Origin: Actinomycetota bacterium
Lineage (GTDB): Bacteria > Actinomycetota > UBA4738 > HRBIN12
Assembly (NCBI GenBank): GCA_046330185.1
Contig: JAXLTF010000018.1
Coordinates: 4,185 to 68,184 of the forward strand
Direction of reading: 5' to 3'
DNA: 64,000 bases
Program-made: the position numbers and the translations under genes
Notes under the pieces: model-generated
Database searches by the model: none
What the model was told of the DNA's origin: nothing
What the model saw: the letters and a program-made list of their open reading frames with translations, nothing else
Part shown: positions 3,395 to 37,879 of the stretch, piece by piece
Layout of the letters: every line of letters begins with the position of its first letter
Position numbering within the stretch: the first letter of the stretch is position 1

Positions 3395-4702
3395 CCGGGC
3401 TCCCGCCACGACGAACGGCCGGAGCGCCGCGAGCTCCCGCAGGCCTACGCGCGCCCACACGCGTGTGCCCTCCGGTTCGGCCTCGGCGTTGATCACCTCG
3501 GCCTCCCGGTACAGCATCGCGACCAGGTCCCCTCGGTCCCACGGGACGAGGGCCTCCAGCTCGATCGGGGGGTTAGGGGTCGCATCGCCGATCGCCTCCA
3601 GCAGCCCCTGCACCCCCTCCCCCGTCAGCGCCGACACCGAGGCGGCGCCCGGGAACCGCCTGGCGAGCCGCGCACGCTCCGCGCCGCTCACGCGGTCGAT
3701 CTTGTTCAGCGCCAGCACCTCGGGCAGGGCGCCCGCGCCGATCTCGTCGAGCACCCGCCGGACCGCCTCCACCTGCTGGTCCAGTTGAGGGGACGCCGCG
3801 TCGGCGACGTGGACGACGAGCTCCGAAAGCGCGACCTCCTCGAGCGTCGAGCGGAACGCCTCGACCAGATCGTGCGGCAGCTTGGAGACGAACCCCACCG
3901 TGTCCGTCATCGTCGCCCGGCGGCCGTTCGGAAGGACGATCCGCCGTGTCGTCGGGTCGAGCGTCGCGAACAGCTGGTTCGCGACCACCACGTCCGAGCC
4001 CGTCAGCCGGTTCACCAGCGTCGACTTGCCCGCGTTCGTGTACCCCGCGATCGCGAGCTGCGGCACGTTCGATCGCTGGCGCCGGGCACGCTTCGTGTCG
4101 CGCGTCCGCTCGAGATCCTTGATGTCCCTGCGGAGCTTGGTGATCCGTCGCCGGATGTGCTGACGGTCGAGCTCGAGCTTCGTCTCGCCCGGTCCGCGGC
4201 GGGTCCCGACCCCCCCGCCCATCCGGCTCATCGCCTCGCCCCACCCCCGCAGGCGGGGGAGCAGGTAGTTGAGCTGCGCGAGCTCGACCTGCGCCTTGCC
4301 CTCGCGGGAGCGCGCGTGCAGCGCGAAGATGTCGAGGATCAGGGCGGTGCGGTCGATGACCTTCGCCTTCAGCCGCTCCTCGAGCGCGCGCAGGTGACCG
4401 GGGCTCAGCTCGTCGTCGAAGATCACCAGCTCGGCGGCCTCGCGGTGAAGGACCCGATGGATCTCCTCGATCTTCCCCTTGCCGACGAACGTCGCGGGGT
4501 CGGGCTCGGACCGGCTCTGCACGATCCTGGCGACCGGGTCCGCGCCCGCCGAGTCCGCCAGGGCCGCTAGCTCGTCCAGGTCGTCCTCGGAGATGCCCGG
4601 GCCGACGCCGACCAGGACCGCGCGTTCGAGCACGCGAGGACGCCACGTCGCCGAGAGCGGCGACTCCTGGGTGTTGACGGCCGAGGGGGTCGGGCGCGCC
4701 AC
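3391..4702 (-). CDS. hflX: Ribosome-splitting GTPase HflX; stop displaced by an apparent 1-nt insertion near 3402-3404
   Basis: GYTNAGKSTL, LFATLDPTTR, DTVGF and NKID G-motifs. Removing one G gives ...VAEPG* at a TAG overlapping the SIS stop (CTAG). Confidence 0.95.
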
Positions 4703-4703
4703 G

Positions 4704-5534
4704 TCAGGCCTGGGGATCGGCGGGCAGACCGAACTCCCGCAGCACGTCGTTCAGGACGATCTTCGCGTCGGTGGCGGCGCCTCGATACCCGACGATCAGG
4801 CCGCTCGGCAGGCCGTACGAGCCCGCCGGGAACGCCTTCTGCCGTACCCCCGGGATGACGATCGCGCCCGCCGGCACCGACCCTCGGTGCTCCACCGGCT
4901 CGCTACCGGTCACGTCGATCACGGGGGTGTTCCCGGTCAACACGACCCCGGCGCCTAGGACGGCCCGCGATCGCACGCGGACGCCCTCGACGATCACGCA
5001 GCGCGAGCCGATGAAGACGCCGTCCTCCACGATCACGGGCTCGGCCTGGACCGGCTCGAGCACGCCGCCGATCCCGACGCCGCCGGAGAGATGGACGTTC
5101 GCACCTATCTGCGCGCACGAACCGACCGTCGCCCACGTGTCGACCATGGTGCCGGGCCCGACCCAGGCGCCGATGTTCACGTAGCTCGGCATCAGGATCG
5201 CGCCCGGCGAGACGTACGAGCCGTACCGCGCCGTCGCCGGCGGCACCACCCGAACGCCGGCCTCGGCGTAGCCGTGCTTGAGCGGCAGCTTGTCGTGGTA
5301 CTCGAAGGGCCCGGCCTCGGTCGTCTCGAGCCCGCGCACCCGGAAGTACAGCAGGACCGCGCGCTTCACCCAGGCGTTCAGGGCCCAGCCGGCATCGGTC
5401 GGCTCGGCGACGCGGATCCGCCCCCGGTCGAGCAGGGCGATCGCCTCCTCGATCGCCCCGGCGTCGAGCTCGGCGTCGGGACGCGCGTAGCTCGCGTCGA
5501 TCCGCGCCGCGAGGTCCGCGTACGGTTCGCTCAC
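4704..5534 (-). CDS. dapD: Tetrahydrodipicolinate N-succinyltransferase (E. coli-type)
   Basis: MPSYVNIGAWVGPGTMVDTWATVGSCAQIG...HLSGGVGIGGVLEP; GTG overlaps the dapC stop. Confidence 0.95.
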   Translation of the reverse strand: MSEPYADLAARIDASYARPDAELDAGAIEEAIALLDRGRIRVAEPTDAGWALNAWVKRAVLLYFRVRGLETTEAGPFEYHDKLPLKHGYAEAGVRVVPPATARYGSYVSPGAILMPSYVNIGAWVGPGTMVDTWATVGSCAQIGANVHLSGGVGIGGVLEPVQAEPVIVEDGVFIGSRCVIVEGVRVRSRAVLGAGVVLTGNTPVIDVTGSEPVEHRGSVPAGAIVIPGVRQKAFPAGSYGLPSGLIVGYRGAATDAKIVLNDVLREFGLPADPQA

Positions 5535-6706
5535 ACCGCCACCGCCCGGTCGGGCAGCAGCGCGTCGAGGATCTCGACCGCGCGCTCGCAGTCCTCGAGC
5601 GACGGCACCATCGCCATCCTCACGTACCCCTCCCCCTCGGGACCGAAGAACGCCCCGGGGGCCACGACCACATCGTGCTCCAGCAGCTCCTCCGCCCACT
5701 CGGCGGACCCGCGACCGTCCGGAACCTCGACCCAGAGGTAGAACGTGCCCTCGCTGCCGGCGACCACGATCCCCTTGCGCGCGAACAGCTCCTTGAACCG
5801 TTCGCGCTTGCGCGCGTACCGTTCGCGGCCGCGCGCGACGTGCGCCTCGTCGTTCCATGCCGCGATCGACGCCCGCTGGACGAACGCCTGCGGCGTCACC
5901 CCCACCGCCGGACGCAGGCGTTGCATCGCCCCGATCAGCGTGGGATCGCCCGCGACGAAGCCCGATCGGTACCCGGTCATCGAGGAGCGCTTGCTGAGCG
6001 TGTGCAGGGCCAGGACGTTCGTCGGGTCTCCGGCCTGCAGGACCGATCCCGGCGGGGCCTCCCCGAACCACAGCTCCGAGTACGCCTCGTCCGATGCCAG
6101 CAGGAACCCGTGCTCGCGCGCCAGCTCCGCGGCGTTCGCCAGGAAGGACGGGGGGGCGACGGCGCCGGTCGGGTTGTTCGGGTAGTTCAGCCACAGCAGC
6201 GCCGTTCGATCCAGGTCCTCGCCCGAGAGCCCGGCCAGATCGGGCAGGAACCCCCGCTCGCGCGTGAGGGGAAGGCGACGGACCTCCGCCCCGGCGAACC
6301 GGGCGCCCCGCTCCGGCACCGGGTACCCGGGCGCCGTCACGAGCACGAGGTCGCGCCCGTCCTCGGGCCGCAGGACGGCCTGCGCCAGCGAGAACACGAC
6401 CTCCTTCGACCCCAGGGTGGGCAGGATCTCGGTGTCCGCGTCGAGCGCGACGTCGAAGCGCCGCCCGATCCAGCCCGCGATCGCCCGGCGCAGCTCGGGG
6501 AGCCCGGCCGCGCGCGGGTACGAGCTGACGGGCTCCACCGCGTCGATCAGCGCCTGGCGGATGAACGCGGGGGTCTCGTCACGAGGGTCGCCGACGCCGA
6601 AGTCGATCAGCGTCCGCCCCGAGGCGATCGCCTCGGCCTGCCGGCGATCGAGGGCCTCGAACGCGTACGGCACCGTCTCCTCGTACGCCCGCGACAGATC
6701 CATCAT
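5531..6706 (-). CDS. dapC: N-succinyldiaminopimelate aminotransferase (PLP class I/II)
   Basis: DFGVGDP, WLNYPNNPTG, SDEAYSE and TLSKRSSMTGYRSG. Located between dapE and dapD. Confidence 0.85.
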   Translation of the reverse strand: MMDLSRAYEETVPYAFEALDRRQAEAIASGRTLIDFGVGDPRDETPAFIRQALIDAVEPVSSYPRAAGLPELRRAIAGWIGRRFDVALDADTEILPTLGSKEVVFSLAQAVLRPEDGRDLVLVTAPGYPVPERGARFAGAEVRRLPLTRERGFLPDLAGLSGEDLDRTALLWLNYPNNPTGAVAPPSFLANAAELAREHGFLLASDEAYSELWFGEAPPGSVLQAGDPTNVLALHTLSKRSSMTGYRSGFVAGDPTLIGAMQRLRPAVGVTPQAFVQRASIAAWNDEAHVARGRERYARKRERFKELFARKGIVVAGSEGTFYLWVEVPDGRGSAEWAEELLEHDVVVAPGAFFGPEGEGYVRMAMVPSLEDCERAVEILDALLPDRAVAV

Positions 6707-7791
6707 CCGCCCTCCCCACCCGCCAGGAACGCGAGCAGTACCTCGGTGGCGTGGACCAGCGACGCCGCCTCGATCCGTTCGTCGTCCCGATGAGCGTACC
6801 CGGGGTCGCCGGGCCCGAAGTTCACCGCGTCCACCCCGGCGGCCGCGAGCTCCGCGACCGGCGTCCAGGCCTGCTTCGGGGCCGCCTCCAGGCCGCCCGC
6901 CCGCCGCAGCCGCTCGACGAGCGCGTTGCGGGTCGCGGCCGGCGCCGGAGCGGCGTTGCCGACGACCGCCACCTCGACCTGCGAGCCCACGAGGTCGCGC
7001 AGCTCCGCCTCGGCCTCCGCGGGCGTCCGTCCGGGGGCGTAGCGGAGGTTGACCGTGGCGACCACCACGTCGGGGACGACGTTGGACGCGATCCCCCCGG
7101 CGATCCGCGTGACGCTCACGACCTCGCGGAAGGTCAGGCCGTCGATGGTCACATCTCGGGGCCCGCGTTCGGCGATCGGGCGGAGCGCCTCCAGCGCGGC
7201 GTGCACGGCGTTCTCGCCCAGCCACGGCCGCGCCGCGTGCGCGGCCCGCCCGCGCACGGTCACGGTCGCGTTCAGGTTGCCGAGGCATCCGAGCTCGAGG
7301 CGGCCGTCCGTGGGCTCCATCACGATCGCGAGGTCGGCAGAGCGAACCTCGCTGCATCGCTCGAGGAACGGCGCCAGGGCGCTCTCGGGTGCCGGCAGCT
7401 CCTCGCGCCCGAAGAACAGCAGCCCGACGTCGATGTCGCTCGGCCGTCCGTCGGCCACCACCTGGGCCACCTCCAGGATCACCGCGAGGGCGCCCTTCAT
7501 GTCGGCGGCGCCGCGCCCCACGACGACATCGCCCTCCCTCCGACCGGGCAGGTTCCCGTTCGCGGGGACCGTGTCGACGTGGCCGACCAGGAGCACCAGA
7601 GGCGCCGAGGCGCGTCGCTCGCCCGGTAGGAAGCACCGCACGGCGTCCGCGTCGTCGATCAGCCGGAACGCGCCGCCGGGCACCCTCCGGGCCATGTGGT
7701 CCAGGATCGCCGCCTCGTTCCGGCTCTCCGAGGGCAGGTCCACGAGCTCCAGGGTCAACTCGCTCAGACGGGCGGCCAGGTCCGCGCTCAT
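6703..7791 (-). CDS. dapE: Succinyl-diaminopimelate desuccinylase (M20)
   Basis: GHVDTVP, GRGAADMKG, REE, MEPT, AAHAARPWLGENAVH and FGPGDPGYAHRDDE. Confidence 0.93.
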   Translation of the reverse strand: MSADLAARLSELTLELVDLPSESRNEAAILDHMARRVPGGAFRLIDDADAVRCFLPGERRASAPLVLLVGHVDTVPANGNLPGRREGDVVVGRGAADMKGALAVILEVAQVVADGRPSDIDVGLLFFGREELPAPESALAPFLERCSEVRSADLAIVMEPTDGRLELGCLGNLNATVTVRGRAAHAARPWLGENAVHAALEALRPIAERGPRDVTIDGLTFREVVSVTRIAGGIASNVVPDVVVATVNLRYAPGRTPAEAEAELRDLVGSQVEVAVVGNAAPAPAATRNALVERLRRAGGLEAAPKQAWTPVAELAAAGVDAVNFGPGDPGYAHRDDERIEAASLVHATEVLLAFLAGGEGG

Positions 7792-29464: not shown

Positions 29465-29533
29465 CGGCCGGTTGCCTCCTTGGGCGTTGGCCGGACGCGC
29501 GCGCGCCCGGGCACGGTGGAGACGCCGGGTGTC

Positions 29534-29596
29534 GGCCGATTGTCAGTGGTGGGCCTCCGAGCACGCGGTTCGGGGGCTCGCTACTGATAACCGACC
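29534..29596 (-). promoter_or_regulatory. Long rpsO-pnp intergenic hairpin (probable RNase III site)
   Basis: GGUCGGUUAUCAGUAG pairs with CCACUGACAAUCGGCC (about 14 of 16 bp), with an inner stem. Confidence 0.65.
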
Positions 29597-29668
29597 TCGT
29601 CGTCGACGTCTCCCGGGAACGGGGCTCAGGTCGTTCGCATCCCTCCTTCGCGGGCCGTGCCGCGCCTC

Positions 29669-29938
29669 CTAGCGGCGGAGCCCGAGCTTCGCGATCAGGT
29701 CGCGGTAGCGCTCGATGTCCTCACGCTTGAGGTACTCGAGGAGGCGCCGGCGCCGGCCGACCATCTTCAGCAGACCGCGGCGGGAGGCGTGATCCTGCCT
29801 GTGGGTCTTCAGGTGCTCGGTCAGCTCGGCGATGCGCCTGGTCAGCACCGCGACCTGGACCTCGGCGGAGCCCGTGTCGCCCGCGGAGCGGGCATGCTCC
29901 TCGATGAGCTGGGTCTTGGCTTCCTTGGTGAGCGTCAT
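29669..29938 (-). CDS. rpsO: 30S ribosomal protein S15
   Basis: [13 protein letters not shown]...[29 protein letters not shown]. Confidence 0.99.
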
Positions 29939-29981
29939 GATCAGCAACCCAGGCTACCAGCGGCGATGCGGCTCCGACCGG

Positions 29982-31070
29982 TCAGTCCGGGACGGGATGG
30001 CCGTCCGAGACGATCCGGGCCGGCAGCAGCCTTCCGCGGATCCATCCGCCCGGGCTGACCGTGACCTCGGCGACCGCGGTCGTGGACCCCTCGTACGAGA
30101 ACACCGGCCAGACGAAGTTGCCGAGCCCCCAGAAGATCGGGCGGCCGTGGTAGCGGCTCATCGGCTGGAGCCGGTGGGAGTGGTGCCCGAAGATCGCGTC
30201 GGCGCCGGCGTCGATCATCCGGTGCCCCTCGCGGACCTGGTAGTCCCGAGGCTCGGTATCGAGCTCGACCCCCCAGTGGATGGTCACGATGACCAGGTCG
30301 GCGATCCTGTCGGCGTTGCGGATCGCACGCAGCTTCAGCCTGAGGCTGTGACCGGTCGCCGTCCCGGGCTCGTCGGGCCCCGCCGTCTGGTAGAGCGGGT
30401 CCAGCACCTCGCCGAACCCCACCACCGCGACCGTCCACCCGTTCAGGTCGAACACCGCGGGGCGCTCGGCCGCCAGCTCGTCGCGGCCGGCTCCAACGGG
30501 CTCGATACCCGCCTCACGGAGGTTGCGGATCGAGTCGAGCAGCCCGCGCGGACCCTGGTCGTACGCGTGGTTGTTCCCGAGGTTGGCGACCTCGACGCCC
30601 GCGTGCCGGGCGGCGGGGAGCGCGGCCGGGTCGCAGCGGAAGTTGAACTCCTTCGGGATCGGGGCGACGATGTCCGTCGACGGACACTCGTGGTTGATCA
30701 CGGTGAGGTCGTCCCGACGGAACAGCCCGTCCAGCCCCGACCACGCCCAGCGATAGCCCTGCGACCGGAACACGGGCAGGTAGGAGGGGTCGAGGCTGAC
30801 GTCACCAGTGCCGTGGATCAGGAGCGAGCCCTTCGGCGCGGGCGAGGGGGTCGGTGACGGCGGAGGGGGCGCGCCGGTGACGCCCGAGGGCCCCGTCCCG
30901 GTCGTCGGCCCCGACGCGCGCGCGACGTCCCCCGACGCGCTCCCGGTTCCCGATCCGTCGCCCCCCGTCATCGCGGATGCGGTGAGCATGCCCGCCGCTC
31001 CGACGAGCGCGATCAGGACCAGGAGCACCCAGAAGGGGAAGGGCGCCTTGCGGGCGTGGCGGCCGGTCAT
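29982..31070 (-). CDS. Membrane-anchored CapA-family metallophosphoesterase
   Basis: N-terminal TM, Gly/Thr/Pro linker, then GDV, INHE, LGNNHAYDQG, IHWG and GHHSH. ATGA overlap with the ribF stop. Confidence 0.9.
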   Translation of the reverse strand: MTGRHARKAPFPFWVLLVLIALVGAAGMLTASAMTGGDGSGTGSASGDVARASGPTTGTGPSGVTGAPPPPSPTPSPAPKGSLLIHGTGDVSLDPSYLPVFRSQGYRWAWSGLDGLFRRDDLTVINHECPSTDIVAPIPKEFNFRCDPAALPAARHAGVEVANLGNNHAYDQGPRGLLDSIRNLREAGIEPVGAGRDELAAERPAVFDLNGWTVAVVGFGEVLDPLYQTAGPDEPGTATGHSLRLKLRAIRNADRIADLVIVTIHWGVELDTEPRDYQVREGHRMIDAGADAIFGHHSHRLQPMSRYHGRPIFWGLGNFVWPVFSYEGSTTAVAEVTVSPGGWIRGRLLPARIVSDGHPVPD

Positions 31071-32021
31071 GGGAAGTCCCTTCGGATGGGCTGGGTGTCG
31101 GGAACGATCGCCCGCGTCCGCCGGACGTCGTCGGCGATCGCGGAGACCAGGTCGTCGACCGCATCGTACTTGACCTCGTCCCGCAGCCGGCCCCAGAACT
31201 CGATCGCGATCGGGCGTCCCCGCAGATCTCTCCCCTCGAAGTCCAGCAGGAACGCCTCGACGTGCAGCGGCTCCACCCCGAACGTCGGGTTCGTGCCCAC
31301 GTCGATCGCCGCCCGGTGCCGGGATCCGCCCAGCTCGGCCACGCCCGCGTAGATCCCCTGCCCGGGCAGCAGCAGGCGCGGCCACGTGCGCAGGTTGGCG
31401 GTCGGGAATCCAAGCCCCCCGCCCCCGCCCGTGACCCGAGACCACCTCGCCGTCGAGCGCGAACCGGCGCCCCAGCGCGACCTGCGGCCACGCGAGGTCG
31501 CCCGCGCCGAGCGCCTCACGCACCGACGACGACGAAACCGTCCTGCCGTCGATCTCGAGCAGGCCGACGCCCTCGGCGGTCAGGCCGTACGGCTCGCCGA
31601 TCACCGGCAGGGTCTGCACCGTTCCGAGGGCACGATGGCCGAACGTGAAGTTTGCTCCCATCACCGCGTGCACGGCGTGGACCCCTTCCACGAGCGTGTC
31701 CCGCACGAAGTCCTCGGCCAAGATCCGAGAGAACGCCGCCGTGAACGGGATCACGATCAGCACCTCGATCCCGGTGCCGGCGATCAGCGCGCCCTTGCGC
31801 TCGACCGTGGTCAGCAGGCGGGGTTCCTTGCCGGGCGTGAGCACCTCGCGGGGGTGACGGTCGAACGTGATCGCCACCGGGCTGGCGCCGCGCTCTCGCG
31901 CGGCCTCGACCGTCCGCGCGAGCACCGCGCGGTGCCCCAGGTGGACCCCGTCGAAGAAGCCGACCGTGACGACCGACGGACCATCATCCAGCGGCAGCGC
32001 GTCACCCGGCACGATCCGCAT
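31067..32021 (-). CDS. ribF: Bifunctional riboflavin kinase/FAD synthetase; +1 G in a G-run near 31425-31430
   Basis: GFFDGVHLGH and GANFTFG in frame 1; GLGFPTAN, VGTNPTF, HVEAFLL and LRDEVKY in frame 2. Confidence 0.95.
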
Positions 32022-32106
32022 GCGGCGCAGAGTACCGAACGTCCCGCGACGCACCCGTCCCGTCGATGCCCGGCCGGGGGACCCGCCGGAGTACCGTGAG
32101 GACCGC

Positions 32107-33027
32107 ATGACCGGGTCATGGTGGATGCGATCGGTGGCGCTCTCGGTGGCCATCGTGGTCGCGAGCGCGTGCGGAGGGCCGGGGGCCGGCCGACCCGTCA
32201 CGGCGCTCGGCGACGACGCGGTGTCGATCGGGTCGTTCGACTTCCCCGAGAGCACGCTGCTCGCCGAGCTGTACGCCCAGACGCTCGAGGGGCACGGGAT
32301 CGCCGTCGAGCGTCGGTTCGCGCTCGGGCCGCGCGAGCTCGTGCTGCCGGCGATGGAGCGCGGGCTGCTCGAGCTGGTCCCCGAGTACGTCGGAAGCGCC
32401 CTCGCGTTCCTCGGCGGCACGCCGACGCCGCAGACCGCCCCGACGCTCCTGCTCCTGCGCGGTCAGCTGGCCTCGCGCGGCCTGGCCGCCCTCGACCCGG
32501 CGCCCGCGCAGGACCAGAACGGGTTCGTCGTTACCGCCTCCACGGCAGAGCGCCTGGGCCTGCGGTCCCTGTCGGATCTGTCGAGGGTGGCCGGCGATCT
32601 CACGATGGGGGGGCCGCCCGAGTGTCCGACACGTCGCCTGTGCCTCCGCGGGCTCCAGGACATGTACGCGATCGGCTTCGGAGCGTTCATCCCCCTCGAC
32701 GCCGGAGGGCCGCTCACGCTCGAGGCCCTGCTCTCCGGCGCGATCGACGTCGGTCTGATGTTCACGACCGACGGCACGATCGAGCGACGCGGGCTCGTGC
32801 TGCTGACGGACGATCGCCACCTGCAGCCCGCCGAGAACGTCGTGCCCGTCACCCGGACGGACGTCCTGACGCGGTTCGGACCCGGGTTCGCCGAGGCGCT
32901 CGACGCCGTCGGGGCGGCGCTTGACACCCAGACGCTGCGCGGGCTGAACGCCGCGGTCCAGTCCGGCGGATCCCCCGCCGACATCGCCCGCACGTGGCTC
33001 GACGCCCACGGTCTGCGTACCGGCTAG
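32107..33027 (+). CDS. OpuAC/OsmF-type ABC substrate-binding lipoprotein (orphan)
   Basis: Lipobox VASAC, SIGSFDFPESTLLAELYAQ, VPEYVG, QDQNGFVV and DDRHLQPAENVVP. Confidence 0.9.
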   Translation: MTGSWWMRSVALSVAIVVASACGGPGAGRPVTALGDDAVSIGSFDFPESTLLAELYAQTLEGHGIAVERRFALGPRELVLPAMERGLLELVPEYVGSALAFLGGTPTPQTAPTLLLLRGQLASRGLAALDPAPAQDQNGFVVTASTAERLGLRSLSDLSRVAGDLTMGGPPECPTRRLCLRGLQDMYAIGFGAFIPLDAGGPLTLEALLSGAIDVGLMFTTDGTIERRGLVLLTDDRHLQPAENVVPVTRTDVLTRFGPGFAEALDAVGAALDTQTLRGLNAAVQSGGSPADIARTWLDAHGLRTG

Positions 33028-33040
33028 CATCGCCGCACTG

Positions 33041-34741
33041 ATGGACGCGATCGGGCGGCAGCAGGGCGGCACCGCGGACCCGGTCGCGACGACGCGCCAG
33101 GCGGCGCCGCGCCGAGGTCGGCGCCGGAGGCCGAGCGGAGAGGCCCCGCCGCTGCCCCGTGAGCTCGGCGGGTCCGGGAAGTTCCTGCTGCTGGTGATCG
33201 CGTACTTCGCCAGCGTGCTGCTGGGCGTGCTGCTCTTCTCGCCCTTCGAGCGGTTGTTCGAGAGCTGGGACGCGCAGCAGATGCGATGGCTGGCGTCGAT
33301 CCGGACCGACTGGCTGACCGACTGGGCCCTGGGGATCGGGCTGCTGGCATCGCGTTGGGCGATCCGGATCCTCCGGTGGGGGTCGATCGCGGGGCTCGTG
33401 GCCCTCCGGCGCTGGCGACAGCTGCTGGTCTTCGTGGGCGCGATCGTGGTCGTCGAGCTGGCCACGTACCAGACCAGCCTGTTCATCGCGCGGCCCCGGC
33501 CGCTCGGCATCGAGATCCTCGGCCCGTGGAGCGGGTTCGCGATGCCTGCACGCCCTCTCGCGGGGCTGGCCGTCACGCTCGTGGGGATCAGCTACTCGTT
33601 CATCCCGGCCGGCCGCATGCGGTACGGCTCCAAGTGGGTGATCGCGGTCCTGCTGGCGGTGCTGTCGCTGACGCACGTGTACCTCGCGGTCGATCAGCCG
33701 ACGAGCGCGGCCTTCGGCGCGATCTTCGGTTTCGCGGTCGGGCTGGTGGCGTTCCGATGGTTCGCGCCCAACGACGTCTACCCCGTGTCGTACACCAGGA
33801 GGAAGGCGGCGCACCTCGACGTGGGAGGACGTCGCGGGGAGGCGATCGTCCATGCGATCGAGGACCAGCTCGGGTTCCGGATCACGGAGGTCACCCCCGT
33901 CGGACTGGCCGGCTCCGGTGGATCGACCCCGCTGCGGTTGCGGGTGGAGGCTACCTCGGCCGACCCGCAGCGTTACCTCTTCGCGAAGCTCTACGCGAAG
34001 AGCCACGTCCGCGCCGACCGGTGGTACAAGCTCGGCCGCACGATCTTGTACGGACAGCTCGAGGACGAGACGCCCTTCCAGTCCGTGCGTCGCTTCGTCG
34101 AGTACGAGGACTACACGCTCCGTCTCATGGCCGATGACGGCCTGCCGGTGCCCCGGCCCTTCGGGATCGTGGAGATCACGCCCGAGCGGGAGTACATGAT
34201 CGTGATGGAGTTCTTCGAGGGCGCCGTGGAGCTCGGCGAGGCGGAGGTCTCCGAACACGTGATCGACGAGGGCCTGCAGCTGATCCGGCGGATGTGGGAC
34301 GTGGGGCTCGCCCACCGGGACGTGAAGCCCGCGAACCTCATGGTCCAAGACGGCGAGCTCCGGCTCATCGACGTGTTCTTCGTGCAGGTCCGGCCCTCGC
34401 CGTGGCGGCAGGCCGTCGACCTGGCGAACATGATGCTGGTGCTCGCGCTGCGCGCGGACGCGCAGCGCGTCTACGATCGCGCGCTCCGCTGGTTCACCCC
34501 GGATGAGATCGCGGAGGCGTTCGCGGCGGCGCGCGGCATCGCGAGCCCGACCCAGCTCCGGTCGATGTTGAAGCGGGACGGACGCGATCTGGTCGAGGAG
34601 TTCCGCGCGCTCGCGCCCCCGCGCGACCCGATCAGGATCCAGCGGTGGAGCCTGCGCCGGATCGGCCTCACGCTGGTCGTCGCGCTGGTGGTGCTGCTGG
34701 CCGTGTCGTTCTTGGCATCGAACTGGGAGGCCTTCGCGTGA
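33041..34741 (+). CDS. Membrane protein: degenerate PAP2-like domain, protein-kinase-like (RIO/Kdo/Hanks) domain and C-terminal TM
   Basis: GLAGSGGS loop, LFAKLY Lys, VMEFFEG hinge, HRDVKPAN catalytic loop and IDVF; N-terminal multi-TM region with RPRP. Confidence 0.85.
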   Translation: MDAIGRQQGGTADPVATTRQAAPRRGRRRRPSGEAPPLPRELGGSGKFLLLVIAYFASVLLGVLLFSPFERLFESWDAQQMRWLASIRTDWLTDWALGIGLLASRWAIRILRWGSIAGLVALRRWRQLLVFVGAIVVVELATYQTSLFIARPRPLGIEILGPWSGFAMPARPLAGLAVTLVGISYSFIPAGRMRYGSKWVIAVLLAVLSLTHVYLAVDQPTSAAFGAIFGFAVGLVAFRWFAPNDVYPVSYTRRKAAHLDVGGRRGEAIVHAIEDQLGFRITEVTPVGLAGSGGSTPLRLRVEATSADPQRYLFAKLYAKSHVRADRWYKLGRTILYGQLEDETPFQSVRRFVEYEDYTLRLMADDGLPVPRPFGIVEITPEREYMIVMEFFEGAVELGEAEVSEHVIDEGLQLIRRMWDVGLAHRDVKPANLMVQDGELRLIDVFFVQVRPSPWRQAVDLANMMLVLALRADAQRVYDRALRWFTPDEIAEAFAAARGIASPTQLRSMLKRDGRDLVEEFRALAPPRDPIRIQRWSLRRIGLTLVVALVVLLAVSFLASNWEAFA

Positions 34742-35312
34742 GACGGCGGCTCCCCTGGTGCTGCTGTGCGTCGTGGCGCTGGCGCCCGCCTGCTCGAGCA
34801 GCGCGTCGATGCTCCCTCCGTGCAACCGGCCCGACGACCGGACGCTCATCCTGATCGCGCAGGCCGTTCCGACCGCGACCAGGTTGCCTTGCATCACGGC
34901 GATCCCGGCGGGCTGGACGTTCGGCGGGGCGCTCGTCGAGTCCGACCTCGCTCGGATGTGGCTGGATTCGGACCTGGGCGGGATACATGCCGTGCAGATC
35001 GATCTGGTGGCGCGTTGCGACACGTCGGATGCCGTCGAGGTGCCCCCCGGTCCCGACGAGGGCGGCACGCGGGTGTTCCAGCTCCCCGTGACCCTCCCGC
35101 CCGGCTTCGTCGGCTCGCGCTTCGTCACGTTCCCGGGCGGCTGCGTCAGGACCGAGTACCGCTTCGCAGCCGACGCTCCCGCATCGCTGACGGTCGAGGC
35201 CGATGCGGCCGTCGGCCTGATCGCCCGCTCGGCCGTCGCGGTGGAGGTCGAGGACGCGTTCGGCCTCCCGCTCTGCGGGGCCGGCGTCGTCTGCGCCGGC
35301 GACGGCCCGTGA
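34738..35312 (+). CDS. Cys-rich lipoprotein; likely 1-C deletion at 34752-34755 (track ORF starts at 34758)
   Basis: Restoring one C gives MRRRLPLVLLCVVALAPAC (basic N-region plus lipobox) starting at a GTGA overlap with the kinase stop. Confidence 0.75.
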
Positions 35313-36043
35313 GCCCCCGCTCGTCGCGCCCGCCCGAGCCCCGCGCGCTCGCCGATCACCGGCGAGCGCTCTGGTACGCGGTCGGTCTGCTGGGCTCGCT
35401 CGTCTTCGTGCTCTTCGCGGTGGGACGCCACCCCACCGACGCCGCCCCGATGACCACGATCCCGTTCGTCGGCGAGCTCGACCAGGCGATGCACCGCTGG
35501 ATGGACGACGTCCGCGTCACGCCGCTCACGTGGCTGTTCCGGTTCCTGAACGTGCTCGGCGCCGGGATCGTCACGATCCCTATCCGGATCGTCGCGTCGG
35601 CGATCCTGGCCGTGCGGCGCCGCTGGCGCGCGCTGGCCGCGTTCCTGTTGACCTGGGTCGCGTCCGAGCTGATCCTGGGTTGGCTGAAGCCTTGGTTCCA
35701 TCGAGGACGTCCCGACGGGGCCCTGGTCGAGACGGTCGGCTTCTCGTTCCCCTCCGGCCATGCGGTCGCGGGCTCGGCGCTCGCCGTCGCGCTGGTGCTG
35801 GCGTTCATGCCGGCGGGCCACGAACGACGGGTGTGGGAGTGGATCGCCGCCGGGTTCGCGTTCATGATGGCGCTGTCGCGCGTTTACCTCGCCGCGCACT
35901 GGTTCTCGGACGTCGTCGCCGGAGTGCTGCTGGGCTCGGGCGTCGCGATCGGCTCGGCCGCCCTGGTCACCGAGATCCGCGACCTGGTCCGAGGGCCCGA
36001 CGGCGAGCCGTCGGGCGGGCGGGTCACGCCGGGGCCAGGATGA
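35309..36043 (+). CDS. PAP2-family phosphatase (intact catalytic motifs)
   Basis: KPWFHRGRP, SFPSGHA and SRVYLAAHWFSD; GTGA overlap with the upstream gene. Confidence 0.93.
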   Translation: MSPRSSRPPEPRALADHRRALWYAVGLLGSLVFVLFAVGRHPTDAAPMTTIPFVGELDQAMHRWMDDVRVTPLTWLFRFLNVLGAGIVTIPIRIVASAILAVRRRWRALAAFLLTWVASELILGWLKPWFHRGRPDGALVETVGFSFPSGHAVAGSALAVALVLAFMPAGHERRVWEWIAAGFAFMMALSRVYLAAHWFSDVVAGVLLGSGVAIGSAALVTEIRDLVRGPDGEPSGGRVTPGPG

Positions 36044-36881
36044 CCCGCGGCCGGCCCTTCGTGCCCTCGTCCTCGTAGATCCCGATCAGGGCCCCGTCCG
36101 GCCCGTGCACCGCGTACGGCCCCGCGATCGCGGCGGGGCCCAGGATCCGTCCGTGCCGGGCGGCCGCCGCCTCGTGCTCGTCCAGCTCCAGCCGTGGGAG
36201 GTGCCCGACGGCCCGCTCGAGCGGCAGGGGCAGCCCCGGCGCCTCCGGGGGCGTCGCCTCGTCCACGGTGAAGGGCCCGATCGCCGTGCGGCGCAGCGCG
36301 ATCAGGTGCGCCCCGCAGCCCAGGCGGTCGCCGACGTCGGCGGCCAGCACGCGCACGTAGGTCCCGCTCGAGCAGACCACCACGAAGTCGACGTCCCGGC
36401 CGTCGAACGCCTCCAGCCCGAACCGATCGACCCGGATGGGCCTGGCCTCCGCCTCGATCGGGACCCCGCGACGAGCCGCGTCGACGAGCTTGGTCCCCCC
36501 GACCTTGACGGCCGAGTACGCGGGCGGGCGCTGCAGGGACCCGCCCTCAAGCGCCGCCATCGCCGACCGGATCTCCTCCGTGCCCGCGTCGACCTCGACG
36601 GGGACACCCACCGGCTCGCCATCGGCGTCGAGCGTCGTCGTCCTCGCCCCCAGCCTCATCGTGCCCTCGTAGGTCTTGGAGAGGGACGCCAGGAACCGCA
36701 GCAGGCGCGTGGCGCGACCGACCCCGACCAGCAACAGGCCGGTCGCCATCGGATCGAGGGTGCCCGCGTGGCCGACCCTGCGTGTCCCGAGCGCCCGCCG
36801 GACCCGGTCGACGGCGTCGTGGGAGGTGATGCCGCCGGGCTTGTCGATCAGCAGCAGCCCGTCGATCGCGGGGGTGCTCAA
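36024..36881 (-). CDS. truB: tRNA pseudouridine(55) synthase
   Basis: DKPGGITSHD, GHAGTLDPMATG, QRPPAYSAVK and CSSGTYVR. Confidence 0.97.
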   Translation of the reverse strand: MSTPAIDGLLLIDKPGGITSHDAVDRVRRALGTRRVGHAGTLDPMATGLLLVGVGRATRLLRFLASLSKTYEGTMRLGARTTTLDADGEPVGVPVEVDAGTEEIRSAMAALEGGSLQRPPAYSAVKVGGTKLVDAARRGVPIEAEARPIRVDRFGLEAFDGRDVDFVVVCSSGTYVRVLAADVGDRLGCGAHLIALRRTAIGPFTVDEATPPEAPGLPLPLERAVGHLPRLELDEHEAAAARHGRILGPAAIAGPYAVHGPDGALIGIYEDEGTKGRPRVILAPA

Positions 36882-37879
36882 TGCTCGGCCGGCGCGCGCG
36901 ACCCCGGGGGGGTTCCGCGGAGGGCCCCGACCAGCCGCGCGATCGTCTCGGCCGGGCCGTGCTCGGACGTGTAACCGGCGGCGAGCCGATGCCCGCCGCC
37001 TCCGAACCGCGCCGCGACGCTGGCCAGGTCGTGGGCCCCGCGGGGGCGGACGCTGACCTTGAACCGTCCGTCCAGCGCTTCTTCACGACGGCCGCCACGT
37101 CGACGTCGCGGGCCGTCGGATCGCGTCGATCAGGTCGTCCGCGTCGCTCGGATGCACGCCGGCCGCGTCCAGGTCCGCCCGCATCAGGTGCGTCCAGACG
37201 AGGTCGCCGTCCATCTCGGTGGCGAGCCGCTCCATCGCGGTCGCCAGCATGCGCAGGTACGCGGCCGGATGATCTTCGTAGAGCGCCTGGGCGAGCGCCG
37301 CGTGGTCGAACAGGTGCTCGCGGAGGGCCGCCGATCCGCAACGTCTCCGGCGTCGTCGCCTCGTACTGGAACCGCCCCGTGTCGGTCACGAGGCCCGCGT
37401 AGAAGCAGGCCGCGGTCGCGTCGGGCATGGGTCCGCCGATCGCATCGATCGGCCGGAACACCACCTCGCACGTTGACGAGGCCGCCGGATCGACCAGCGG
37501 GATCAGTTCCCAGCCCGTCGTTCGAGCGGTGGTGGTCGATCCAGATCAGCTCCGCGGCCTTGGAGGCTGGCCCGCCCAGCCCGCCCAGCCGGTCGAACGA
37601 CGCGCAGTCGCAGGTGACCATCACGGCCGGCGCCGACGGGAACCTATGCAGGTCGACGAGCTCCTCAGAGCCGGGCAGGAAGCTCGCCCAGCGAGGGGGC
37701 TCGAGGGGCTCGTTGGGGTAGGAGCAGACCGTCTCGGTCCCGCGCGAGCGCAGGAACGCGGCCAGCCCGAGCATCGAGCCCAACGCATCCGCGTCCGGAT
37801 TCACGTGGCAAGCGAGCGCGACCGCGGGCGCGTGCATCAGTACGGACGCCGCCCGCCGGAGCGTGTCATCGATGGTCAT
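36878..37879 (-). pseudogene. nrnA: DHH/DHHA1 oligoribonuclease (NrnA) with about 4 frameshifts; probably sequencing artefact
   Basis: HVNPDADALGS, IDHH, GLVTDTGRF, FKVSVR and FGGGGHRLAAG are recovered only by switching frame near 37505, 37334, 37118 and 37082. Confidence 0.85.

Follow-up and report, generated by a model that had tools for sequence, protein, structure and literature searches.

Why do four genes on the plus strand stand between ribF and truB, which are both read from the minus strand, and do the four belong together? The question is raised by a 64,000-nucleotide stretch of contig JAXLTF010000018.1 from an Actinomycetota bacterium (assembly GCA_046330185.1, positions 4,185 to 68,184), which is called the window here. 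Its source is a metagenome-assembled genome (MAG) of 2.6 Mb in 63 contigs, 79% complete and with about 71% G+C. According to the open reading frames (ORFs) of the window, ribF and truB are separated by genes for an OpuAC-type lipoprotein (the substrate-binding protein, SBP), a pseudo-PAP2/kinase membrane protein (KIN), a Cys-rich lipoprotein (LPP) and a PAP2 lipid-phosphate phosphatase, in this order. No ABC permease, ATPase or transcription factor was found among the four genes. The initial annotation, which described four co-directional genes splitting truB from ribF and lacking these three functions, was confirmed in this by ORFs and domains. The comparisons below indicate that the four genes are a conserved set and that its core is a kinase with a separable ectodomain.

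The gene order at the ribF-truB site was mapped by tblastn in 20 stretches of related genomes. The same order at the same site (ribF, then OpuAC-KIN-LPP-PAP2, then truB) was found in at least 12 genera of two families. A one-genome-per-species scan gave at least 556 KIN-encoding stretches, and the best-scoring 80 loci, holding 88 KIN genes, were analysed. By identity to the KIN of the window, these genes were divided into clade A (at least 60%), clade B (50-60%) and clade C (below 50%). For clade A, OpuAC was found upstream in 40/44 cases, LPP downstream in 45/47 and PAP2 after LPP in 41/44. For clade B, the corresponding counts were 14/30, 28/28 (all of them in-frame fusions of KIN and LPP) and 5/28, and for clade C they were 0/7, 0/6 and 0/6, with a frequent position of the clade-C genes between PAP2 and truB. 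The same picture was obtained on a 1.1-Mb contig from gene calls made independently and annotated with precomputed Pfam matches. OpuAC (299 aa) and KIN (554 aa) come first there, then a 192-aa protein that has no annotation and whose start and the KIN stop overlap by 4 nt, and then PAP2 (228 aa); beyond these lie an LPG_synthase_TM gene in convergent orientation and truB. Judged by gene order, the linkage of the four genes is not due to chance, and they are a conserved, co-occurring set. The candidate four-gene system proposed from the window alone is borne out in this respect, as its homologues do occur together in the clade-A loci.

All of the best 80 loci come from uncultured Actinomycetota, mostly soil MAGs. 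KIN was found in 40 of 301 sampled genomes of the phylum, under six family codes only, and one family has at least four copies per genome; a large protein collection holds more than 8000 KIN homologues. The genome of the window itself encodes a clade-C KIN paralogue (48% identical; C56:149187-150803), in which the kinase motifs are intact and the PAP2-like region is more degraded. No OpuAC, LPP or PAP2 neighbours were found beside this paralogue.

In clade B, the KIN frame passes without a stop through the C-terminal membrane helix into an LPP-homologous Cys-rich domain (28/28). The fused open frames are clean (799 aa in L029 and 750 aa in L030), and the fused LPP domains of these two and of the protein P0190 carry the AQAVPSAT-LPC-PxGW motif and the terminal LCGAG-C. 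A search with LPP among 1.84 billion representative proteins gave 644 clusters at 50% identity. These are mostly stand-alone proteins of about 190 aa, and some are proteins of 727-735 aa with the order PAP2-like, RIO-like, LPP (P0190, 727 aa; P0265, 735 aa). The LPP homologues share the lipobox Cys and six further conserved Cys. Because LPP is fused in frame to KIN throughout a paralogous clade, it is best read as the split-off, lipid-anchored ectodomain of the kinase. The same fusions lend direct support to an earlier suggestion for the window, that of a receptor-kinase-like pathway split into parts.

LPP itself had no Pfam or NCBIfam match. Its AlphaFold2 (AF2) model is confident (pLDDT 92.1). 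Foldseek searches against the PDB gave best TM scores of 0.3-0.36 (Apa, PsbP, DcrB and MucB/RseB), none at E<=0.001, and a fold assignment from these matches was dropped. Several apparent fusions were also set aside. The LPP-PAP2 proteins P0275 and P0309 are partly out-of-frame read-throughs of overlapping genes, and no evidence was drawn from them. Among clade-A KIN-LPP fusions, the split high-scoring segment pairs of L069 indicate frameshifts and its kinase match stops short, and L059, which has no split segment pairs, was discounted by inference alone as a frame left open by chance or through the loss of a stop codon. A metagenome protein of 438 aa (P0286), in which a Hanks N-lobe joins the KIN C-lobe and LPP exactly at HRDIKPAN, is probably a chimeric assembly and was not used; if real, it would be a natural domain swap.

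The fused kinases often lie amid unrelated genes (VWA, PfkB, dehydrogenases, desaturase), which argues that KIN and LPP can work without a neighbouring PAP2 and form the self-sufficient core of the module. In four clade-B loci examined with ORFs filtered by G+C at the third codon position and with Pfam, no common cytoplasmic partner was found. An all-against-all clustering of stop-to-stop frames for further conserved neighbours collapsed into one giant cluster in this high-GC DNA and was abandoned.

KIN is composed of a disordered N-terminal tail, six long helices, a kinase fold and a final helix in the AF2 model (mean pLDDT 78.6). The N-terminal domain is 25-33% identical to the partner PAP2 (tblastn, E 1e-6 to 7e-19). 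With PF01569, no match was obtained for the KIN of the window at E<=0.1, and some homologues do match this model. Because of the similarity to the partner PAP2, the PF01569 matches in homologues and the six AF2 helices, the N-terminal domain is assigned to the PgpB-type fold as a paralogue of the neighbouring PAP2. The catalytic motifs of this fold are altered. In the window, the C1 motif RP is kept, the C2 motif PSGH is changed to MPARP, and the C3 nucleophile His is changed to Asp. Across clades A, B and C, PSGH is changed to PS-x-P (His to Pro) and the C3 His to Asp or another residue, with C1 RP and the C3 Arg mostly kept. At KIN residue 212 (33674-33676), the window copy has His, and Arg is present in at least 90% of the family and in the same-genus homologue P0002. 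Since both catalytic His are absent, the domain would be unable to use the phospho-histidine mechanism, and by its motifs the PAP2 half of KIN is catalytically dead across the whole family. The pseudo-PAP2 label given to KIN at the outset is well founded, both catalytic His being lost in all three clades.

The kinase half shows the opposite state. K316, H425, R426, D427, K429, N432 and D444 are invariant in an alignment of 41 KIN sequences, and GSGGSTP, Lys316, HRD[IV]KPAN and Asp444 are kept invariant or nearly so across the family. HRDxKxxN is the Ser/Thr-protein-kinase form of the catalytic loop (Hanks subdomain VIb). KIN matched the Pfam models RIO1 (5e-6), Pkinase (1.7e-4), Kdo (2.6e-3) and, weakly, APH. 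RIO1 (PF01163) is the sole Pfam model above its cut-off, and its match is marginal (26.7 against 22 bits, aa 345-445 only). PDB matches by sequence cover the catalytic loop only. With Foldseek, the best matches of the kinase domain were RIOK1/2/3, A. fulgidus Rio1 and PRPK/Bud32 (target TM up to 0.59), together with generic Ser/Thr kinases. The activation segment is very short, with only about 10 residues between IDVFF and PWRQAVDL and no APE motif. By its motifs, the domain is a catalytically competent, RIO/Bud32-like kinase with a Ser/Thr-type loop.

Positive residues of KIN are found in the N-terminal tail, in the RRWRH loop and before the last helix. From their placement and from the homology of the N-terminal domain to PgpB-type PAP2 enzymes, the kinase is predicted to be cytoplasmic, and the PAP2-like pocket and the C-terminus would lie outside. 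Near the N-terminus, in the part predicted to be cytoplasmic, 88/88 KIN genes encode an R-x-P-[S/T]-G-x-x-P-x-L motif, whose [S/T] position is Ser in 72 cases and Thr in the other 16. This motif, which is similar to a basophilic kinase site with a PxxP-like stretch behind it, may be a phospho-acceptor or a docking site.

The fold matches raise the alternative that KIN works as an ATPase switch, in which the RIO/Bud32-like domain would mainly hydrolyse ATP and, by changes of conformation, regulate PAP2, the flippase-like protein described below, or both through the pseudo-PAP2 domain, as a pseudoenzyme-enzyme pair and without downstream phosphorylation. The best folds being RIO kinases and PRPK/Bud32, RIO1 being the only Pfam model above cut-off, the descent of the pseudo-PAP2 as a paralogue of the partner PAP2 and the lack of any linked substrate or phosphatase gene in the loci examined all speak for this. 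It is nevertheless quite unlikely: the NCBIfam Rio1, Rio2 and Bud32 equivalog models score only 18-24 bits against cut-offs of 125-480, neither PAP2 nor a flippase-like gene lies near many of the KIN-LPP fusions, and the invariant Ser/Thr of the N-terminal motif suggests a phospho-acceptor.

The first gene of the cassette matches PF04069 with 135.1 bits (cut-off 21.2) and scores 89.6 bits with the OsmF equivalog model NF049931, whose cut-off is 400. A profile of 32 cassette SBPs matched the solved structures of EgtUC, OpuBC, OpuCC and ProX at E 1e-33 to 1e-39, and its pocket was compared with that of EgtUC. The EgtUC pocket contains F293, N339, Y341, Y419, Y443, K242 and R379, of which F293, Y341, Y419 and Y443 form, with N339, the aromatic cage for trimethylammonium (PMC9732360). 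In the cassette SBPs, F293 corresponds to Y94, Y419 to F219 and R379 to R176, each in 32/32 copies. Y341 is replaced by Gly, Ala, Thr or Ser in all 32, Y443 by Glu or Asp (32/32), and K242 by an aromatic residue (Phe in 30 and Tyr in 2). A family-specific Cys pair, C173/C179, is invariant in the 32 copies. The aligned pocket is strongly constrained and yet is not the classical betaine cage, as two of four aromatics are lost. Because the equivalents of Y341, Y443 and K242 are replaced, the ligand is probably not classical betaine. The osmolyte or quaternary-amine ligand considered in the initial annotation has become doubtful for the same loss of two cage aromatics in 32/32 SBPs.

No OpuA-type permease was found in the 80 loci by tblastn with the permease of the window's own genome, or on the contig of the window. 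The only OpuA-type permease of this genome (602 aa) is on another contig (within C62:31477-34657; 4478-7657 of locus L113). The next gene after it encodes a protein of 437 aa whose OpuAC domain is partial and highly divergent, and which is only very distantly related to the cassette SBP. The 283-aa ORF upstream of it had no Pfam match, and no ATPase was recognised there. The SBP keeps its orphan status, with no transporter partner at any of the 80 loci and with the genome's own permease having its own adjacent SBP. It could be argued that the four genes are incidental neighbours, the SBP serving an ABC transporter encoded elsewhere and the genes merely sharing the ribF-truB insertion site. One OpuA-type permease does exist elsewhere in a genome that is 79% complete. 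However, that permease has a binding protein of its own, far removed from the cassette SBP, the 80 loci yielded no permease, the cassette genes overlap or nearly abut, and SBP-KIN adjacency is also seen in other contexts (14/30 clade-B loci, outside ribF-truB), so that this explanation is very improbable.

The SBP tree carries a signal of the partner kinase. Ten of the 12 SBPs beside fused-clade kinases fall in one clade with 99% support, and the clade label of the partner kinase needs 2 changes on the tree against 11 expected from shuffling, with 0/500 shuffles as low. This signal fits co-diversification of the SBP with its partner kinase.

The fourth gene matches PF01569 with 68.3 bits (cut-off 27.2), and its catalytic motifs KX6RP, PSGH and SRX5HX3D are intact in the translation (KPWFHRGRP, PSGH and SRVYLAAHWFSD). 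It is weakly similar to SepP (1e-10) and PgpB (2.8e-8) and stays below every NCBIfam equivalog cut-off. A convergent flippase-like gene (PF03706, LPG_synthase_TM) follows PAP2 in 47/80 loci. In the genus of the window, this gene is not at the ribF-truB site; the genome has a 64%-identical ortholog on another contig (C7:15416-17121), divergent from a second PAP2-like gene. The pairing of the kinase as writer with the PAP2 as eraser, which had been proposed for the window, is doubtful, because by homology the kinase is cytoplasmic and the PAP2 site faces outward, and because 23/28 fused-clade kinases have no adjacent PAP2.

These neighbours could also take part in a lipid-phosphate cycle. KIN would phosphorylate an inner-leaflet lipid or lipid-linked head group (polyprenol, polyprenyl phosphate or diacylglycerol), the flippase-like protein would move the lipid, PAP2 would dephosphorylate it outside, and LPP and SBP would be accessory. 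The presence of PAP2 after LPP in 41/44 clade-A loci and of the flippase-like gene next to the cassette in 47/80 loci is in line with such a cycle. So are the joining of the kinase to a lipid-phosphatase fold, its minimal C-lobe and its weak matches to the Kdo/WaaP and APH small-molecule kinase models. In contrast, PAP2 follows only 5/28 fused-clade kinases, the window's genus lacks the flippase-like gene at the site, the catalytic loop has the Ser/Thr-protein-kinase form HRDxKxxN, and the pseudo-PAP2 pocket, by homology, faces outward and away from the kinase. A Cys-rich ectodomain behind the kinase and an orphan SBP are a receptor layout, needless for a metabolic kinase. The lipid cycle is considered unlikely.

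Since the core of the conserved module is a kinase with a separable ectodomain, the cassette has the layout of a receptor, and we give an even chance to the reading that it is a receptor-like envelope-sensing kinase made of separate parts. The gene order, the conservation, the fusions, the status of the motifs and the predicted folds are directly established. In the proposed mechanism, the kinase domain would be held between the six-helix pseudo-PAP2 domain and the C-terminal membrane helix of KIN. The lipid-anchored LPP would act as the ectodomain split from the last helix of KIN, and the orphan OpuAC lipoprotein as a ligand-binding co-receptor. The intact PAP2, in most relatives together with the flippase-like protein, would set or respond to lipid phosphate in the outer leaflet, which the dead PAP2 pocket may still bind. 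Signals at the outer face (LPP, SBP and possibly the dead pocket) would change the activity of the cytoplasmic kinase. The output would be autophosphorylation of KIN, possibly at the N-terminal RxP[S/T]G, or phosphorylation of some protein. In this scheme, we infer the topology from homology and the positive-inside rule, and likewise all of the interactions, the ligand and the substrate.

A more specific form of the receptor reading is tentative and somewhat unlikely. Here the dead PAP2 would be the receptor pocket for a lipid phosphate or pyrophosphate of the outer leaflet, such as the polyprenyl-(di)phosphate carrier on which the flippase-like protein and the partner PAP2 would act, and would gate the kinase together with LPP and SBP. 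If true, a pseudo-phosphatase receptor kinase would be a hitherto undescribed type of transmembrane signalling protein in bacteria.

Several points weigh against the receptor reading. On KIN, Pkinase (PF00069) is below its cut-off (21.6 against 31.7 bits), with the catalytic loop as the only aligned part, and all of the NCBIfam kinase models are also below their cut-offs. The predicted domain has no normal activation segment and no normal substrate-binding lobe, and because of this, and because RIO and Bud32 proteins are mainly ATPases, phosphorylation of a protein by KIN is not assured. No protein substrate, FHA protein, PP2C phosphatase or regulator was linked to the module by Pfam in the loci examined. 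LPP has no confident structural relative. The signal of the SBP tree may in part be species phylogeny, and the recurrent PAP2 and flippase-like neighbours suit a lipid-handling role equally well.

The positions of the cassette genes and of their predicted elements are collected in the table.

Features of the ribF-truB cassette in the window (positions count from the first nucleotide of the window)
Feature	Position	Strand	Size or residues	Basis or remarks
TACCGT, -10-like hexamer (candidate)	32092-32097	+		9 nt before the OpuAC ATG, in the 85-nt divergent ribF/OpuAC intergenic region 32022-32106
Gene 1, OpuAC-type (cluster F) substrate-binding lipoprotein	32107-33027	+	306 aa	PF04069, E 4e-39
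Gene 2, KIN, pseudo-PAP2/kinase membrane protein	33041-34741	+	566 aa	weak kinase-family matches
KIN, N-terminal motif RRRRPSGEAPPLPR (R-x-P-[S/T]-G-x-x-P-x-L)	33119-33160	+		conserved; disordered in the AF2 model
KIN, pseudo-PAP2 membrane domain, six long helices	33170-33763	+	aa 44-241	alignments, motif census
KIN, protein-kinase-like domain	33818-34630	+	about aa 260-530	G-loop GSGGSTP, beta3 Lys316 (FAKLY), HRDVKPAN, D444 (IDVF), very short activation segment
KIN, predicted C-terminal membrane helix, in to out	34652-34720	+	aa 538-560	AF2 helix; RWSLRR on the cytoplasmic side
Gene 3, LPP, Cys-rich lipoprotein	34738-35312 (intact frame 34758-35312)	+	184 aa	conserved Cys, KIN fusions
Gene 4, intact PAP2 lipid-phosphate phosphatase	35309-36043	+	244 aa	PF01569, E 7e-19

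A spacing of 13 nt and two GTGA overlaps had been described within the cassette. Between the OpuAC stop and the KIN start there are 13 nt, and the LPP stop and the PAP2 start share GTGA at 35309-35312 in a true overlap, so that the spacing and this overlap stand. The overlap of KIN and LPP does not stand as such, being broken in the assembly. The GTGA at 34738-34741 overlaps the KIN stop, and the frame that begins at its GTG (MRRRLP...) is out of frame with the remaining LPP. A fifth C in the CCCC run at 34752-34755 would join the two frames and restore MRRRLPLVLLCVVALAPAC. The relatives have an uninterrupted G/ATGA overlap of the KIN stop and the LPP start, and their LPPs (188-198 aa) are 7-10 residues longer than the one encoded here. 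Because the relatives keep both the overlap and the longer LPPs, the KIN/LPP overlap is read as ancestral and as interrupted in this assembly by a 1-nt shortfall. A second break is found in ribF (31067-32021, minus strand), which is split into two frames at a G/C run (31404-31420; GHGRGRG, frame change, LGFPTANL). As ribF is intact in the same-genus relatives L013 and L014, its break is probably an assembly error rather than the sign of a pseudogene, and homopolymer assembly errors are the likely source of both frameshifts.

A generic sigma-70 promoter and terminator scan of 31800-36300 gave no signal beyond chance, including internal ones, and an Rfam scan of 29500-37500 found no RNA family. 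From the tiny or overlapping gaps and the lack of internal signals, the four genes are predicted to be a conserved operon. In about 25 orthologous ribF-OpuAC intergenic regions, a TAC(G/C)GT hexamer is present 6-9 nt before the SBP start codon, which makes the TACCGT of the window a candidate promoter element for an operon transcript that would have no leader or almost none. As similar TA...T hexamers are found directly at the ribF start, ribF and the OpuAC gene may both be leaderless.

The flanking genes are all on the minus strand, with pnp, rpsO, a PGA_cap-like gene and ribF on one side and truB, a DHH phosphoesterase gene, rbfA and infB on the other. The 3' end of the PAP2 gene overlaps the 3' end of truB by 20 nt. 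The PGA_cap gene between ribF and rpsO (29982-31070, minus strand) encodes a CapA-like metallophosphatase with a signal-anchor, and its position is kept in many, not all, of the relatives.

To our knowledge, the signals that activate bacterial Ser/Thr-type kinases are largely not known. We know of very few cases in which a transporter-type SBP feeds a kinase, the main one being GlnH-GlnX-PknG. A large and conserved family is added by the module described here. It is abundant among uncultured soil Actinomycetota, and one kinase in it appears to be wired to an orphan SBP, a separable ectodomain and a membrane domain that is a pseudo-enzyme. The module occurs naturally in split and in fused form, which offers a ready-made test for interactions between its parts. 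Sensing of carrier-lipid phosphates by the dead PAP2, if it takes place, would let cells monitor envelope synthesis in a new way. The value of the module is tempered by the lack of a cultured carrier among the loci examined.

The composition of the cassette had been held to match no described system, and no description was found: in the literature consulted, no paper combines OpuAC, PAP2 and a RIO-like kinase as the cassette does. A module of Segetibacter named PAP2-PIK (bioRxiv 10.64898/2026.09.18.752743) was ruled out as the same system, as its kinase is different and soluble.

The single parts have closer counterparts. RIO and Bud32/PRPK proteins are the best structural matches of the kinase domain and share its compact C-lobe without a normal activation segment. 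They are soluble, ribosome- or tRNA-associated and mainly ATPases, with catalytic loops of the HxDLSxxN type, whereas KIN has HRD[IV]KPAN and is predicted to be membrane-embedded. Among PAP2 enzymes such as PgpB, BcrC, SepP and LpxE/LpxT, the fourth gene has the full signature, and the N-terminal domain of KIN has the fold of six helices and the RP and Arg positions in common with them, without the catalytic His. The SBP has the same fold as OpuBC, OpuCC, EgtUC and ProX (subcluster F-III, PMC9732360) and keeps the equivalents of F293, Y419 and R379. It differs from them by the lack of a transporter partner, a small residue at Y341, Glu or Asp at Y443, Phe at K242 and the Cys pair.

Two known systems resemble the cassette as a whole. 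MviN of M. tuberculosis (Rv3910; MviN/MurJ-pseudokinase, ActPs3) consists of a MurJ lipid II flippase, a cytoplasmic pseudokinase, a membrane helix and an extracellular domain (PMC12599244). Like KIN, this actinobacterial envelope protein combines a polytopic lipid-handling domain, a kinase fold with a shortened activation loop, one helix and an ectodomain. In MviN the membrane domain is active and the kinase is dead (VALT for VAIK, no HRD or DFG; PMC12599244), and KIN is the reverse, with a dead PAP2-like domain and intact kinase motifs. The membrane and ectodomain folds of the two proteins also differ, and MviN has no SBP or PAP2 partners. In GlnH-GlnX-PknG of Mycobacterium and Corynebacterium, the gene for a transporter-type solute-binding lipoprotein that has no transporter lies beside those for a membrane protein and a Ser/Thr kinase, and the lipoprotein reports ligand occupancy across the membrane (PMC6069109, PMC9769921). 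The cassette shares with it an orphan SBP encoded beside a membrane protein and kinase in Actinobacteria, which is an analogy of logic only, with no sequence relationship. The membrane protein GlnX, with four helices, is separate from PknG, a Hanks kinase that is soluble and carries rubredoxin and TPR domains, whereas the KIN kinase is fused to a dead-PAP2 membrane domain; no GlnX-type, rubredoxin or TPR domain was found by Pfam in the cassette or its relatives. Compared with GlnH-GlnX-PknG, the cassette adds a Cys-rich ectodomain and a live PAP2. These two nearest known systems are analogies of the cassette, not its relatives.

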